Assembly (NCBI GenBank): GCA_024103275.1
Contig: JAGFIV010000066.1
Location: forward strand, 10,531-74,530
Direction: 5' to 3'
DNA: 64,000 nt
Origin: Flavobacteriales bacterium
GTDB lineage: Bacteria > Bacteroidota > Bacteroidia > Flavobacteriales_F > PHOS-HE28
The position numbers and the translations under genes were made by a program. The notes below the pieces were generated by a model. The model made no database searches. It was not told where the DNA came from and saw nothing but the letters and a program-made list of their open reading frames with translations. Positions 3,908 through 15,237 of the stretch are shown here, piece after piece (position 1 is the first letter of the stretch; every line of letters begins with the position of its first letter).

Positions 3908-4123
3908 GGGGCCAAAGGTGGTGAAGGAGATTGAAGTTCGTAGGGCGCAGTTTGTAAGAGCCTGTTCAGGATTTCTTGAGCGATGGCCCACGAGTCAATT
4001 TTCCGTTCCGGCGAAGCCTGGGCGAAAAAGAAGGGGGCCGCGTTTGAAGGATTCCAAACAGGCTCTGGGGTGTCCACGAATTTGAATCCAGGGGTTGGCC
4101 GCCCGCACCGCTACATTCGCTGC

Positions 4124-10852: not shown

Positions 10853-11152
10853 ATGAAAAAAGGCATCCATCCCGACAACTACCGCATCGTCATCTTCAAG
10901 GACATGAGCAACGACCACATGTTCCTGGGGAGGAGCTGCGCGGCCACCAAGGACACCATGAAGTGGGAGGATGGGAATGAGTATCCGTTGGTGAAGCTGG
11001 ACATCAGCAACACCTCCCATCCGTTCTACACCGGCAAGATGATGCTGGTGGATACGGCGGGTCGCGTGGACAAGTTCAAGAAGCGCGTTGCCAAGCACAA
11101 GGAGATCAAGAACAGCGCCCCGGTGGCAAAGGAGGAAAAGGCCGCCGAATAA
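10853..11152 (+). CDS. rpmE: 50S ribosomal protein L31 type B
   Basis: [62 protein letters not shown] is a clear L31 (type B, non-zinc) sequence. It carries a short lysine-rich C-terminal tail. Confidence 0.9.
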
Positions 11153-11173
11153 GACCTGGACAGGCTCCCGAAA

Positions 11174-11204
11174 GCCCTCTCCCGCAACGGGGAGGGCTTT
11201 TTTC
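11174..11204 (+). terminator. rho-independent terminator after rpmE
   Basis: GCCCTCTCCC-gcaac-GGGGAGGGC stem-loop followed by TTTTTTC. Confidence 0.55.
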
Positions 11205-11229
11205 ATTTACAAGCCATACATTCGGCAAC

Positions 11230-11625
11230 ATGGCGACCGGCGCGGGATCGGGAAAAAAGCTCTGCTTGGAGTGCGGGGAACCCATACAGGGCCGGACGGA
11301 CAAGAAATTCTGTTCCGATGCCTGCCGCAACCTGTTCCACTACCGGACCAACAACGCGCCGATCAACTACGTGCGCAACGTGGTGAACGCCCTGAAGCGG
11401 AACCGGCGCATCCTAAGCGAGCTGAACCCCGACGGGAAGACCAAGGTGCACCGCGACAAGCTGGTGGAGCGCGGCTACAACTTCATGTACCATACCAACA
11501 TTTACCGCACCCGCGTGGGCAACGTGTACGTGTTCTGCTTCGAACACGGATACCTCGAACTGGACAACAACTGGTACGCCCTGGTGCGGCGTGATGAATA
11601 CCTCGAACGGGCCGGTGATGCCTGA
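11230..11625 (+). CDS. hypothetical zinc-ribbon protein
   Basis: 131 aa with a CxxC...CxxxC pattern (CLECGEPIQGRTDKKFCSDACRNLFHY) and a conserved-looking C-terminal region. I recognise no family. Confidence 0.5.
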   Translation: MATGAGSGKKLCLECGEPIQGRTDKKFCSDACRNLFHYRTNNAPINYVRNVVNALKRNRRILSELNPDGKTKVHRDKLVERGYNFMYHTNIYRTRVGNVYVFCFEHGYLELDNNWYALVRRDEYLERAGDA

Positions 11626-11649
11626 CCCGGCGGCCGGCCCGTGCAGGGC

Positions 11650-11775
11650 CTAACAGGCCGCCCAGAGGATCAGGATCACCATGGACAGCACCAGCAGCGC
11701 CGTCAACACCGGGCCCGTGATCTCATTCTCTTCCGCTTCCTCGGGGAAATGCCCTTCGTGCTCGTGCGCCGTCAT
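11650..11775 (-). CDS. possible small membrane protein (41 aa, His/Glu-rich N-terminus plus one TM helix)
   Basis: Reverse complement reads MTAHEHEGHFPEEAEENEITGPVLTALLVLSMVILILWAAC. It is below the ORF-track size cutoff, so it is only a candidate. Confidence 0.3.
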   Translation of the reverse strand: MTAHEHEGHFPEEAEENEITGPVLTALLVLSMVILILWAAC

Positions 11776-11857
11776 GGTAACCAATGGTTTTGTGCGGCGA
11801 ATATAAGTGCCGCATGACCAGCCCACGCATCCTCTGCCAACGGCCTCGTCCCTCCGG

Positions 11858-12049
11858 CTAGTTCAAGCTGAGGGTGGCTTGGCGCAGGGGCATCCGTGCG
11901 ATCACGCTGCTCTCGTTGACCGTCATCCGCCGCACCCATTCGCGCACCTGCTCATCCAGCTCCTTGTCGCTCAGACGAGACAGGTCCGCATAGACGGGAA
12001 GGCTGTTCCGGCTCTTGAGGATCAGTGCTATTTTATATGCACGCGACAT
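11858..12049 (-). CDS. hypothetical small protein (63 aa)
   Basis: Track ORF MSRAYKIALILKSRNSLPVYADLSRLSDKELDEQVREWVRRMTVNESSV. Its composition is not shadow-like, but I recognise no family. Confidence 0.3.
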   Translation of the reverse strand: MSRAYKIALILKSRNSLPVYADLSRLSDKELDEQVREWVRRMTVNESSVIARMPLRQATLSLN

Positions 12050-12210
12050 GGCAACCTTCTATGTCGTAGACGTAGGCAGGTGCCAGAGGGATGCCTGACG
12101 AAGCCGGGTGAGCCAACGAACGGGCGGTTTTTTCGGGTGAACGGTGGGGTGGCAACCAGGCAAGTGGCACGGATGGGTGAGAGCCTTGCCACATGGACAA
12201 GCGGTGGATT

Positions 12211-12550
12211 GCCCTTCGGGCGTTCCACAGGTGGGGGAGCTTCATGCCAAAGCCCTGCCCGCTTCGCCCGCGTGGCTTTTTGCTGCCCCCCTTCGCTCAA
12301 GCCGCGCTTGGCTTGGTGGGCAGCAAAAAGCCCCTGCAACTTTGTTGCAAGGGCTTTGGCCTGGTCGGGGTGAGTGGATTGCCCTTCGGGCTTTCCACAG
12401 GAGGGGGAGCTTCATGCCAAAGCCCTGCCCGCTTCGCCCGCGTGGCTTTTTGCTGCCCCCCTTCGCTCAAGCTGCGCTTGGCTTGGTGGGCAGCAAAAAG
12501 CCCCTGCAACTTTGTTGCAAGGGCTTTGGCCTGGTCGGGGTGAGTGGATT
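12211..12550. repeat. 2 x 170-bp tandem direct repeat; each copy ends with the 3'-terminal 19 nt of tRNA-Pro
   Basis: 12211..12380 and 12381..12550 are near-identical. Each ends in tggtcggggtgagtggatt, the reverse complement of AATCCACTCACCCCGACCA. Each unit has an internal 15-bp inverted repeat GGCTTTTTGCTGCCC / GGGCAGCAAAAAGCC. The second copy runs into the intact tRNA. Confidence 0.85.
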
Positions 12551-12609
12551 CGAACCACCGGCCTCTACGTCCCGAACGTAGCACTCTAACCGGGCTGAGC
12601 TACACCCCG
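12532..12609 (-). tRNA. tRNA-Pro (anticodon CGG), CCA encoded
   Basis: Reverse complement CGGGGTGTAGCTCAGCCCGGTTAGAGTGCTACGTTCGGGACGTAGAGGCCGGTGGTTCGAATCCACTCACCCCGACCA. It has a 7-bp acceptor stem, anticodon loop TTCGGGA and T-loop TTCGAAT. Confidence 0.85.
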
Positions 12610-12628
12610 TGGTCCCGTTAAGGGGCGG

Positions 12629-12636
12629 CAAATATA
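12629..12636 (-). promoter_or_regulatory. candidate -7 promoter element (TATATTTG) for tRNA-Pro
   Basis: The reverse complement of caaatata is TATATTTG, about 20 nt upstream of the tRNA 5' end. It matches the Bacteroidota TAnnTTTG consensus. Confidence 0.3.
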
Positions 12637-12727
12637 GTCTTGGCACGCATGCAACATGGAATGAATGGACAACTGCAATCGGAAACGTTGCCGGATGCGG
12701 GCCCCATGCTACATTCGCCCCCGCTCT

Positions 12728-12800
12728 GCGGGAGTAGCTCAGTTGGTAGAGCATCAGCTTCCCAAGCTGAGGGTCGCGGGTTCGAGTCCCGTTTCCCGCT
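12728..12800 (+). tRNA. tRNA-Gly (anticodon CCC)
   Basis: GCGGGAGTAGCTCAGTTGGTAGAGCATCAGCTTCCCAAGCTGAGGGTCGCGGGTTCGAGTCCCGTTTCCCGCT. Cloverleaf with anticodon loop TTCCCAA, discriminator U and no encoded CCA. A TACATTCG motif lies just upstream. Confidence 0.85.
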
Positions 12801-13024
12801 CGATAGCCCCGGTGGACCCACCGGGGCTTTTCATTGCGGCCGCTTGCCGCAAGTGCCGGGACCATCGGGAATGCCGTTCCCGGATAAGCCCCCCGACACC
12901 TTCCGGCACCGCACGGCGAAGCCCCGGATGCTCCGAAATGGGGCCGGGAGAACGTACTTTGCAGCAGGATGGCCTTGGAGAGTCGTTGATGCCTTCCTCT
13001 TTCCACAGGAACTTCCCCGATCCC

Positions 13025-13783
13025 ATGAAAAAGATTGTCAAGCCTTCAATGCCCCTCCTGGTGGGCCTCATGTTGCCGTCCGTTGTGTGCGCACAGGGGC
13101 CACCAGGCGGGAACTTGGTGCCCAATGGCAGCTTTGAGCAGGCCGCCAAAGGGCCGAACACCTTTGACCAAATAGGATTTGCCGAGGGATGGGGAAATGC
13201 CACGCTGGCACAACCGGAGCTTTTTGACCGGCAGGCTTCGGCGAAGACGGTGGGGATCCCTGAAAACACCTACGGAACCATGGCACCGCAGGATGGGGAG
13301 CGCTACGCCGGGTTTATGGCATGGAAAGATGATCAACGCCGTGATTATGAGGGGGGTGCACGCGACCCGTTCAAGCCGGGCTGGAATGCCTACTCGGAAT
13401 ATCCCGAGGTGGAATTGCTCCAAACCTTGGAGGAAGGCGCCACCTATGAGATCAGCTTCCATGTGGCCTTGGCCCAAAACAGCGACAGGGCCGTGGCGGG
13501 CATCGGGGCGCTGGTATCACCCCTCAAGTTGGCGTATCCCAACCGGGGCTTCCTTAAGGAACGGCCGCAGGTGGTGACCGAGGAGATCCTGGCGGAACGC
13601 GGCAAATGGATGGAGATCAAAGGAACCTTCCGTGCGGACGGCGATGAGCGGTTCCTGGTGATCGGCCTGTACCCGACGGCCGTTTTTGAGACCAGGCGGA
13701 TCACGGAAGGCGCGGACAACCAGTACGCCTACTACTACTTGGATAACATCGTGCTGAGGAAAATTGATCCCGTGGGGCCGTAA
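13025..13783 (+). CDS. secreted protein, paralog of the N-terminal domain of the downstream OmpA/TSP3 protein
   Basis: Start taken at MKKIVKPSMPLLVGLMLPSVVCAQG (signal peptide). The ~220-aa body aligns by eye with residues 25-245 of the next gene (NGSFE...DRAVAGIGA...YLVIG...EGAD.QxAYYYxD). Confidence 0.55.
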   Translation: MKKIVKPSMPLLVGLMLPSVVCAQGPPGGNLVPNGSFEQAAKGPNTFDQIGFAEGWGNATLAQPELFDRQASAKTVGIPENTYGTMAPQDGERYAGFMAWKDDQRRDYEGGARDPFKPGWNAYSEYPEVELLQTLEEGATYEISFHVALAQNSDRAVAGIGALVSPLKLAYPNRGFLKERPQVVTEEILAERGKWMEIKGTFRADGDERFLVIGLYPTAVFETRRITEGADNQYAYYYLDNIVLRKIDPVGP

Positions 13784-13872
13784 CCTAACCGGGATGGGAC
13801 TTACCTTCGCCGCCAAATCGGGGTAGTCCCTGAAATGCCGTACAGCCAATCCAGCAAACCAAAAGAAACCAC

Positions 13873-15237
13873 ATGAAGATCCACTACTTCGGCCTGCTCG
13901 CCGGGATGCTCCTTGCCTTCGGGGCCAAGGGTCAAGGGGCAGATGAGAACCTGGTGAAGAACGGGAGTTTTGAAGACCTGAACAAGCCCGTGAAGACCTG
14001 GGACCAGCTGAAGCACGCCAATGGCTGGTCGAATGCAAACAAGGGCAGTGCCGACCTGTTCGCCAAGGATGCGTCGCACACCTCGGTGGGCATTCCGGAC
14101 AATGAACTGGGCACGGGTACCACGGCCTTTGACGGGGAACACTATGCCGGTTTCGTCGCCTACAAGGAAGACATGCGCCGCAACTTCAAGCGCATCAAGA
14201 GCGGCAAGGAAAGCCCGTTCCGGCCCGCCTTCCAACGGTATTCCGAGTACCTGCAGACCGCATTGTCCGGCCCGCTGACCGCCGGGCAGAAGTACGATGT
14301 GACCTTCCGCGTGAAGCTGGCCAATGGGAGCGACCGCGCCGTGGCCGGCATCGGGGCCTATCTCTCACCCATCGAACTGAACTACAACCATCGCCACTTC
14401 CTGGATGAAAAACCCCAGGTTTCCACCACCAAGATCGTGGATGACAAGCAGAACTGGACGGAGGTGACCGGGACGTTCACCGCGGATGGCAATGAAAAAT
14501 ACCTGGTGATCGGGGCCTTCACCAGCGGTGGCTTCGATACCAAAAAGGTGATCGAGGGGGCGGACAGCCAGCGCGCCTATTATTACATCGATGGGGTCTC
14601 CGTGAAGGTGCATCCCGAGGAGGACCGCGACGGTGACGGCGTGCCCGACAAGGACGACCTTTGCCCCGATACGCCGGGCCTGGCCTCCCTGCAAGGATGC
14701 CCCGACCGGGACGGTGACGGCATCGCGGACCACCTGGATGCTTGCCCCGACGTGGCCGGCCCGGTTGAGTTCAGCGGCTGCCCCGATACGGACGGGGATG
14801 GCGTGCCCGACAATTTGGACCGCTGCCCCAAGGTGGCCGGCCCTGCCAGCAACCACGGCTGCCCCGAAGTGACCGAGAAGACCAAGCAGCTCTTCGAGAA
14901 GGCCCTGACCGGCATCCAGTTCGAGACCGGAAGTGCCAAGATCAAGACCTCCAGCTATGGCATCCTCAACCAAGTGGTGGATGTGATGAAGGAGAATCCT
15001 TCCTATGACCTGGAGATCCACGGCCACACCGACAATACCGGCAAGGCCGAGAAGAACCAGACCCTCAGCGAGGACCGTGCCGCTTCGGTGCGTGCCTACC
15101 TGGAAAGCAAGGGAGTGAGCGGGGACCGCATGAAGAGCTTCGGCCACGGCCAGACCGAACCCATTGCTGACAATGGAACCGCGGCAGGCCGCAGCAAGAA
15201 CCGCCGCGTGGAGTTCAAGGTGACCTTCTGGCGCTAA
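13873..15237 (+). CDS. OmpA-family protein with thrombospondin type 3 repeats and an N-terminal paralogous domain
   Basis: Signal peptide; four Asp-rich DxDxDGxxDxxDxCP TSP3-like repeats (DRDGDGVPDKDDLCPDTPG and three more); C-terminal OmpA domain (HGHTDNTGKAEKNQTLSEDRAASVRAYL...NRRVEFKV). Confidence 0.8.
   Translation: MKIHYFGLLAGMLLAFGAKGQGADENLVKNGSFEDLNKPVKTWDQLKHANGWSNANKGSADLFAKDASHTSVGIPDNELGTGTTAFDGEHYAGFVAYKEDMRRNFKRIKSGKESPFRPAFQRYSEYLQTALSGPLTAGQKYDVTFRVKLANGSDRAVAGIGAYLSPIELNYNHRHFLDEKPQVSTTKIVDDKQNWTEVTGTFTADGNEKYLVIGAFTSGGFDTKKVIEGADSQRAYYYIDGVSVKVHPEEDRDGDGVPDKDDLCPDTPGLASLQGCPDRDGDGIADHLDACPDVAGPVEFSGCPDTDGDGVPDNLDRCPKVAGPASNHGCPEVTEKTKQLFEKALTGIQFETGSAKIKTSSYGILNQVVDVMKENPSYDLEIHGHTDNTGKAEKNQTLSEDRAASVRAYLESKGVSGDRMKSFGHGQTEPIADNGTAAGRSKNRRVEFKVTFWR

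Follow-up and report, generated by a model that had tools for sequence, protein, structure and literature searches.

A probable tRNA-linked repeat downstream of tRNA-Pro(CGG) in Flavobacteriales

tRNA-linked repeats and the tRNA-Pro(CGG) array

In Escherichia coli K-12, 22 tRNA-linked repeats (TLRs) are distributed over ten loci, with one to five repeats per locus, and they are recognized by their last 18-19 bp, which repeat the 3' terminus of the tRNA or rRNA encoded upstream (Stenum et al., 2021; PMC8144298). Most TLRs are without an assigned function, and there is no accepted account of their origin (Stenum et al., 2021). By the account given in that paper E. coli TLRs have been known since 1978, and the type example, tyrT-tyrV/rttR, is credited there to Egan and Landy (1978) and Rudd (1999). 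The small RNAs RrA, RrB, and RrF are encoded between T1 and T2 of rrnA, rrnB, and rrnD and are made by read-through of T1; the repeat within them has been proposed to serve as a 3'-processing signal, and their expression, binding to Hfq and CsrA, and mapped ends have been established experimentally (Stenum et al., 2021). Searchable literature using the term "tRNA-linked repeats" is confined to enterobacteria. When the E. coli genome (NC_000913) was checked directly, the region downstream of tyrV was found to hold a 178-bp repeat in 3.1 copies with 95% identity, and AATCCTTCCCCCACCACCA, the 3'-terminal 19 nt of tRNA-Tyr, is present in each unit. RttR is annotated as ending at the CCA of such a copy.

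The window (the whole stretch of 64,000 nucleotides of DNA from an uncultured Flavobacteriales bacterium analyzed here) contains a tRNA-Pro(CGG) gene with an encoded CCA at 12532-12609 on the minus strand (ARAGORN; Rfam tRNA, 63.9 bits). The original prediction described a repeat unit running straight into this tRNA; the adjacency is correct, but the minus-strand orientation given by ARAGORN and Rfam had been overlooked, and because the gene is read on that strand the repeat lies downstream of the tRNA 3' end. The array starts at the base after the CCA, on the tRNA's own strand, and the features described below are likewise on the minus strand unless stated otherwise. Tandem Repeats Finder reported one array at 12204-12550, with a period of 170, 2.0 copies, 98% matches, no indels, and a score of 673, corresponding to 2.04 head-to-tail copies of the 170-bp unit, and a repeat search placed the copies at 12204-12373 and 12374-12543. 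Both programs therefore agree with the two near-identical tandem units originally proposed. Three single-base differences between the copies can be read off the sequence (12220/12390, 12232/12402, and 12305/12475). A public contig from another assembly (WBZR01075250.1, L013) has two units as in the window with identical base differences, and since this is an independent contig with a matching arrangement, faulty assembly of the window does not explain the array.

The last 19 nt of tRNA-Pro, AATCCACTCACCCCGACCA on the tRNA strand (12532-12550), are the source of the tRNA-derived part of the repeat. Their reverse complement, TGGTCGGGGTGAGTGGATT, which includes the CCA, occurs exactly twice in the 64 kb, at 12362-12380 and 12532-12550, against a chance expectation of 0.02, and no further match was found in the window at up to three mismatches (<=3). 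The tRNA 3' end is thus present twice at a distance of 170 nt, as had been claimed. The proximal 170-nt unit (12362-12531) consists of a 151-nt trailer body (12381-12531) followed by the perfect 19-nt copy of the tRNA 3' end (12362-12380); a covariance model of the unit (R1) matches it with 176.6 bits, reported at 12371-12540. The distal unit (12204-12361; R1 match of 173.8 bits, reported at 12195-12370) has a 151-nt trailer body (12211-12361), after which the array ends with the heptamer AATCCAC alone (12204-12210; GTGGATT on the forward strand). A copy of its own 3' end was also looked for downstream of the neighboring tRNA-Gly(CCC), encoded on the plus strand at 12728-12801 (ARAGORN, Rfam), and was not found. 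The possibility that the repeat is a degenerate tRNA pseudogene was considered and rejected, likeness to the tRNA being confined to the T-arm region and the 5' strand of the acceptor being absent.

The array resembles the E. coli tyrT TLR in several respects. It lies immediately downstream of a stable-RNA gene, directly behind the tRNA on the same strand, with a unit of 170 bp compared to 178 bp; it carries an exact 19-nt copy of the tRNA 3' end, within the 18-19 bp typical of TLRs, that begins at the same T-loop base as the E. coli junction (AATCC...CCA); and it forms a small tandem array (2.04 compared to 3.1 copies, 98% compared to 95% identity) within the range of one to five repeats per TLR locus. 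Unlike the E. coli repeat, the Flavobacteriales array follows tRNA-Pro(CGG) rather than tRNA-Tyr, belongs to another phylum, and closes with only 7 tRNA-derived nucleotides where the tyrT array has a full 19-nt copy. Nor was homology in sequence or structure detected: permissive Rfam searches (E <= 10) of positions 11000-14000 and searches of seven related loci at gathering score returned tRNAs only and no match to RtT (RF00391), a family that gave four matches of 133-138 bits in E. coli as positive control. Since the architecture matches and the test for homology with E. coli failed, the array is filed as a putative non-homologous member of the TLR class. It also lacks a tpr-like ORF, and with a period of 170 bp no reading frame continues from unit to unit. 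A coding reading of the repeat was rejected; the ORFs through it (116 aa and 145 aa, plus strand) shift frame from one unit to the next because 170 is not a multiple of 3, and an ATG behind an apparent Shine-Dalgarno-like GGAGG is not conserved among relatives.

The layout is also that of RrA, RrB, and RrF, in which a stable-RNA gene is followed by T1, a body of ~150 nt, an 18-19-nt copy of the gene's 3' end, and T2. There, however, the upstream gene encodes 5S rRNA, no homology to the present element was detected, and the Flavobacteriales trailer RNA is a prediction from sequence. The readings offered in the original prediction did not include tRNA-linked repeats, although the architecture already had a name.

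Unit anatomy and predicted fold

On the tRNA strand the unit is composed, in order, of a short spacer, a terminator (T1), a long hairpin (P3), a segment containing GCGAAGC, the 3' strand of helix P1, a C-rich run, and a hairpin resembling a T-arm (P5). T1 (12495-12524), read from the sequence directly after the tRNA, is a hairpin of the form GCCCUUGCAAC-AAA-GUUGCAGGGGC followed by U5; its stem of 11 bp is rich in G+C, and together with the U5 run it has the form of an intrinsic (rho-independent) terminator. The second imperfect palindrome noted in the original prediction is this terminator hairpin of tRNA-Pro. The stem is kept in 28 of 28 aligned units, with changes on both sides at four pairs. 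The second unit has this hairpin and U5 run as well, placed immediately behind the tRNA 3'-end copy, again as read from the sequence (T2, 12325-12354). A simple terminator scan listed neither T1 nor T2, which we attribute to three A-U pairs that lengthen the stem into the U run.

Helix P1 pairs the last two bases of the CCA and the spacer with a segment ~95 nt downstream, and encloses both T1 and the long hairpin. In the proximal unit it spans 12413-12533 (arms 12520-12533 and 12413-12426; inverted repeat I8, 14 nt, 93%) and in the distal unit 12243-12363 (arms 12350-12363 and 12243-12256; inverted repeat I6). The long hairpin P3 corresponds to inverted repeat I4 in the proximal unit (12444-12502) and I2 in the distal unit (12274-12332), and the 15-bp stem originally described there extends to 18 nt with 94% complementarity (12444-12461/12485-12502 and 12274-12291/12315-12332). 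The U5 run of the terminator contributes to the 5' arm of P3, with A5 in the 3' arm, and the apical sub-hairpin, CAAGC-GCA-GCUUG, is conserved. P5, identified from the sequence and by folding, lies at 12374-12398 in the proximal unit (GUGGA-AA-GCCC-GAA-GGGC-A-AUCCAC) and at 12204-12228 in the distal unit, where it supplies the heptamer AATCCAC common to the T-loop and T-stem of the tRNA. P5 ends in AAUCC(A/U)C. The tRNA-derived 19-mer begins with its 3' strand, so that P5 mimics a T-arm whose loop has been replaced by a hairpin.

On the tRNA strand, a single unit has a minimum free energy fold consisting of a four-way junction plus P5, at -85.8 kcal/mol (z = -3.4 relative to shuffled sequences), whereas the centroid fold shows the full terminator in place of the junction, suggesting that two conformations compete; P1 and the base of P3 do compete with the lower T1 stem. 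Transcription would reach little of the element if T1 terminates efficiently. The unit also differs from the tyrT TLR in opening with an intrinsic terminator and in forming its predicted four-way junction from an inverted copy of the trailer.

Covariation was assessed in 37 units aligned with the covariance model, an alignment that is fitted to the model and whose sequences are related by descent. In this set standard pairs filled 88% of cells, compared to 34-44% when the 3' partners were slid by 1-3 columns, and 24 of 52 pairs had changed on both sides. Compensatory cells numbered 183 as opposed to 58 in shuffles, and the covariation score of 0.281 (0.111 when shuffled) was reached in none of 500 shuffles. 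Changes on both sides were found at 5 of 9 pairs in the outer helix P1, 4 of 6 in P2, 9 of 17 in P3, 3 of 5 in P3b, and 3 of 10 in P5. Because the alignment had been fitted to the model, an arm-swap test was also run, in which arms are permuted between species and column pairings are not used; the cognate arms of P1, P2, P3, and P3b each beat the permuted arms and were equalled in 0 of 5000 permutations. Kinship inflates tests of this type, yet it cannot yield the many distinct arm sequences. On a plain MAFFT alignment, RNAalifold found no more than the terminator and the long hairpin's base and apical stem; recovery of the outer helix P1 required the structure-aware alignment and the arm-swap test. 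In P5, 12 units have A-U and 10 have U-A at the pair beside the tRNA-derived bases, a switch that apparently tracks the tRNA's own T-stem (CCUC or CCAC). Compensation is visible even among strain variants of the window's species, two of which, with ~1.7 units (L005 and L007), have three fully compensatory pair changes in P3. Taken from comparison among these units, the evidence for a conserved fold of the element is good.

Such complementarity might instead be a property of the DNA. A large imperfect palindrome could function at the DNA level, for instance by forming a cruciform or binding a protein, with its arms kept alike by template-switch quasipalindrome correction. The 3' half of the unit is in fact the reverse complement of the trailer with only the top of the hairpin exchanged, the opposite strand, too, is more stably folded than its shuffled versions (z = -2.2), and G.U cells (59) and A.C cells (45) over all helices give no clear strand bias. 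When the helices are taken singly, however, P2 (7:1) and P3 (36:17) lean toward G.U on the tRNA strand, a lean that is not seen in P1 (12:15) or P5 (3:10). Palindrome correction also leaves unexplained the asymmetric conservation of unpaired motifs (GAGCGAAG in the hairpin loop, GCGAGCGAAGCGAGC, and the C-rich run), and the T-arm-like hairpin and apical sub-hairpin covary even though they are local stems outside the large palindrome. The orientation of the element relative to the tRNA is moreover constant, including in blocks that have been inverted. A purely DNA-level element is therefore judged decidedly unlikely; nevertheless, because the 3' half of the unit resembles an inverted copy of the trailer, DNA-level correction, rather than selection on RNA, could account for part of the arm complementarity, as in P1 and P3.

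Conservation and repeated amplification among relatives

For comparison, 80 species-representative Flavobacteriales loci of ~6 kb each were fetched via the Zn-ribbon protein family. The Zn-ribbon gene, the 41-aa and 63-aa ORFs, the element, tRNA-Pro, and tRNA-Gly form a conserved synteny, and the element is present in 42 of the 80 loci, always at this locus; searches of the 80 loci with an HMM and the covariance model found it solely on the 3' side of tRNA-Pro. A further 23 loci with tRNA-Pro have a terminator alone or nothing. The related public records are mostly MAGs.

The element is multi-copy in 25 of the 42 loci, and the relatives' arrays comprise one to five units. At least two full units are found in five loci (L025, L032, L069, L086, and L029), with three tRNA 3' ends in L069. 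In six others (L017, L019, L026, L028, L039, and L049) a full unit is followed by a second that keeps the tRNA-end copy and terminator and is otherwise truncated or decayed. Fourteen loci carry arrays of short units (~105-118 nt) that begin inside P3 and are without the tRNA end and terminator, one to four of which stand behind a full unit (up to four in L076). Eleven loci have a single full unit and six a partial one. The tRNA-derived boundary measures 7, 11, or 19 nt depending on the species and is missing from short units, breakpoints differ among lineages, and identity between units ranges from 97% in the window down to 67% in L025, which indicates that the duplications differ in age. Different breakpoints combined with this spread of identities indicate that amplification has been repeated, at different times. 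The copy-number variation that had been envisaged is found within the window's own species as well, in which contigs contain 1, ~1.7, and 2 units; the one-unit contig (L001) may be an assembly collapse.

These data bear on whether the second unit has any consequence. The 170-bp tandem copy could be a recent, functionless product of slippage and the array a variable-number repeat at a hairpin-rich hot spot, in which case the trailer element may still be functional as a single copy. The 98% identity of the units implies a recent duplication, the distal junction shares just 7 nt with the tRNA, copy number varies among contigs of one species, eleven species have a single full unit and six a partial one, and second units are frequently truncated or decayed. 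Set against this are the number of species in which the element is multi-copy and the different breakpoints of their arrays, the two 67%-identical units of L025, which have kept scores of 165 and 112 bits with the structure model and so suggest long retention, and the finding that decaying second units retain the tRNA-end copy and T2. T2 after a tRNA-end copy is kept in 11 species (10 besides the window's), also in species whose second unit has otherwise decayed, and its stem carries compensatory changes in L017. We therefore consider a wholly neutral array unlikely. The original prediction allowed for a slippage duplication of no consequence next to a simple tRNA flank in relatives; slippage or unequal exchange is indeed the likely origin, but the flank in relatives is not simple, the element being conserved and repeatedly amplified.

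The element and tRNA-Pro have been inverted as a single block in L024 and L030, and tRNA-Pro is also inverted in L022, L037, L045, and L046, with remnants of the element after it in L022. That it inverts as a block with tRNA-Pro shows the element to be linked to the tRNA rather than to the 63-aa gene downstream. Of the three readings first put forward, a structured RNA co-transcribed downstream of the tRNA is the best supported, through compensatory changes in five helices and attachment to the tRNA 3' end through block inversion. The orientation, the linkage within inverted blocks, and the T1/T2 layout are compatible with transcription and processing as part of the tRNA primary transcript, as is characteristic of TLRs.

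Integrases that target tRNA genes classically leave direct repeats of a tRNA 3' segment beginning in the T-loop, and the original prediction accordingly raised an att scar and a miniature tRNA-targeting element. The two tRNA 3' segments would on this account be attL/attR-like cores that a tyrosine integrase supplied in trans left behind, or else the 170-bp unit would be a miniature element targeting tRNA-Pro. The resemblance is genuine, in that the tRNA 3' segment from the T-loop occurs twice in direct orientation; the arms of the outer helix can be read as terminal inverted repeats, and the block of tRNA-Pro and element is inverted in some species. What is enclosed, however, is 151 bp of non-coding DNA, 98% identical to the native trailer and a copy of the native downstream flank, and no foreign cargo is seen; foreign DNA would imply an empty site in relatives, but the bounded DNA is conserved in 42 of 80 loci. 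The pattern is one of vertical inheritance at a single syntenic locus in 42 species, with boundaries that vary between species and are only 7 nt long at the distal end of the window's array. The outer-helix arms change compensatorily between species, whereas conservation would be expected of a site that a transposase recognizes.

Nor does the neighborhood point to mobility. The array is surrounded by genes for ribosomal protein L31, the Zn-ribbon protein, and OmpA/TSP3 outer-membrane proteins, together with the two ORFs on the tRNA strand, and a Pfam search of the 20 ORFs in the interval from 0.4 to 23 kb of the window showed housekeeping families only, and neither an integrase nor a transposase; an integrase, which the original prediction suggested looking for next to other copies of the unit, is thus missing from that interval. 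The 63-aa ORF (11858-12049), the downstream neighbor of the array, and the 41-aa ORF (11650-11775) both exist on the minus strand as originally described, and gene annotation of public assemblies includes both. Most of the related loci inspected show the 63-aa ORF, which had no match in Pfam or NCBIfam. Dispersed copies of the MITE or REP type were not found beyond the locus in the 64-kb window, in the 80 loci, or in exact-pattern scans of public contigs, and a 25-nt probe from the unit had no exact match in public genome contigs and one in metagenome contigs, which was the window's own locus. Within what was searched, the miniature-element proposal is accordingly not supported, the unit being restricted to one locus of conserved synteny, and an origin by integration or transposition in either form is regarded as highly improbable. 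A 19-nt probe for the conserved motif also hit one viral contig (L095), which is unrelated, has no tRNA, and by rough estimate matches at about chance level.

Proposed origin, role, and significance

The array is probably a tRNA-linked repeat, formed by tandem duplication of the native tRNA-Pro(CGG) trailer through slippage or unequal exchange at a shared heptamer and giving rise, by read-through of T1, to a trailer RNA; this is suggested by sequence comparison and by analogy with E. coli. The trailer is a conserved element of ~150 nt, and its terminal heptamer, AATCC(A/T)C, matches exactly the last three T-loop bases and the 3' strand of the T-stem of the tRNA, where the junctions fall. Slippage or unequal exchange between the two heptamers would have duplicated the 170-bp interval, and the same event would have carried the last 19 nt of the tRNA into the junction. 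With two units in place, unequal recombination could then expand, contract, or truncate the array, which would explain the copy-number differences across strains and species.

By analogy with T1-rrB-T2 of E. coli rrnB and with tyrT-RttR, polymerases that pass T1 would transcribe the body, and the body RNA would fold into the four-way junction and T-arm mimic. The copied tRNA 3' end together with T2 may then set the 3' end by supplying the signals with which the tRNA itself is matured and terminated, and the product would be a stable trailer RNA of ~170 nt. This argument for a defined 3' end does not apply to the short-unit arrays, which have neither the tRNA-end copy nor T2.

A bolder interpretation, which we put forward tentatively and rate as possible rather than probable, is that the elements constitute a new family of structured tRNA-trailer RNAs in Flavobacteriales, characterized by the four-way junction and T-arm mimic, that has independently arrived at the design of the E. 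coli TLRs. If true, copying of the tRNA 3' end would be a general bacterial route to a tRNA-like end for trailer RNAs, lineage-specific amplification of the body would reflect selection on dosage, and the ~40 diverged species copies would make the purpose and origin of TLRs tractable by comparative genomics.

The repeat exists as observed, an obscure but already described class accounts for it, and the main interest of the locus is as an independent and well-sampled example of a TLR in another phylum. The occurrence of the TLR architecture in a distant phylum with unrelated sequence argues that the design is convergent and mechanistically meaningful, and not a curiosity of E. coli. With more than 40 diverged species, one to five copies, datable breakpoints, and strong covariation, the Flavobacteriales loci provide a data set beyond that available from E. 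coli alone, and one suited to testing both the origin of the repeats and selection on the RNA fold. There is also a practical aspect, in that the repeat breaks many short-read assemblies at the locus; many short-read contigs of the window's species end inside it, and arrays are present in long-read "tig" assemblies too (L039, L057, and L061).

Unit turnover and inversion at the tRNA-Pro locus

Three close relatives (L016, L018, and L019) together catch the turnover of the repeat unit, which comprises a trailer body and a copy of the last 19 nt of tRNA-Pro. L019 (3940-4290) carries an intact unit adjoining the tRNA and a decayed distal unit; L018 (3975-4156) has been found with a single intact unit, and in L016 (3936-4099) the decayed unit stands alone and now adjoins the tRNA. 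A deletion running from one 19-nt repeat to the other would produce this outcome.

In six species (L022, L024, L030, L037, L045, and L046), tRNA-Pro was found to lie in the opposite orientation to the genes around it (approximately 3930-4050, plus strand). In L024 and L030 the entire block of tRNA-Pro and its folded trailer element has been flipped, such that it now faces tRNA-Gly.

Assembly of the tandem array

Many short-read metagenome contigs of the window's own species stop no more than 40 nt into the repeat (L003, L004, and L009-L012, each ending 184-187 nt away from the 63-aa ORF downstream of the array), indicating that the tandem array systematically breaks assemblies at the tRNA-Pro locus. 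The one-unit contig L001/L006 (MEGAHIT k127) displays unit-specific bases in a chimeric combination, a pattern compatible with genuine deletion as well as with assembly collapse.

Neighboring non-coding elements

The trailer of tRNA-Gly(CCC) (window 12802-12950, plus strand) carries its own terminator at 12805-12828, and through an imperfect 26-nt inverted repeat, I1, this terminator region is paired with 12909-12934. The trailer fold has a z of -2.7, and the 3' end of tRNA-Gly is not duplicated downstream of the gene. The tRNA-Gly(CCC) trailer may be a second example of a trailer pairing with its own inverted copy.

In most related species, a conserved set of short motifs is located 20-70 nt upstream of the 63-aa ORF start codon (minus strand at window 12068-12125; corresponding position in L015-L093), in the order CCGTTCC, AGGCATCC, and CGTCT. 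These motifs could serve this uncharacterized small gene as an atypical promoter or as part of its 5' UTR.

Motif likenesses in unrelated sequences

In an unrelated viral contig (L095; IMG/VR IMGVR_UViG_3300049893_001058), a non-coding region (13155-13385) holds two occurrences of GCGAGCG(A/C)AGCGAGCAGGG with no tRNA near them; this is most likely a coincidental hit of the 19-nt probe. The E. coli tyrT repeat (NC_000913 locus L094, 1086-1120) carries CCCGAAGGGCGAAGCGCGC just 5' of its tRNA-end copy; the Flavobacteriales unit has GCCCGAAGGGC immediately before its own tRNA-end copy and GGGCGAAGCGGGC farther upstream (window 12374-12400 and 12420-12440). Because no homology between the two was detected by Rfam, this likeness may be coincidental or a product of convergence toward stable small hairpins (GCGAAGC, CCC-GAA-GGG).
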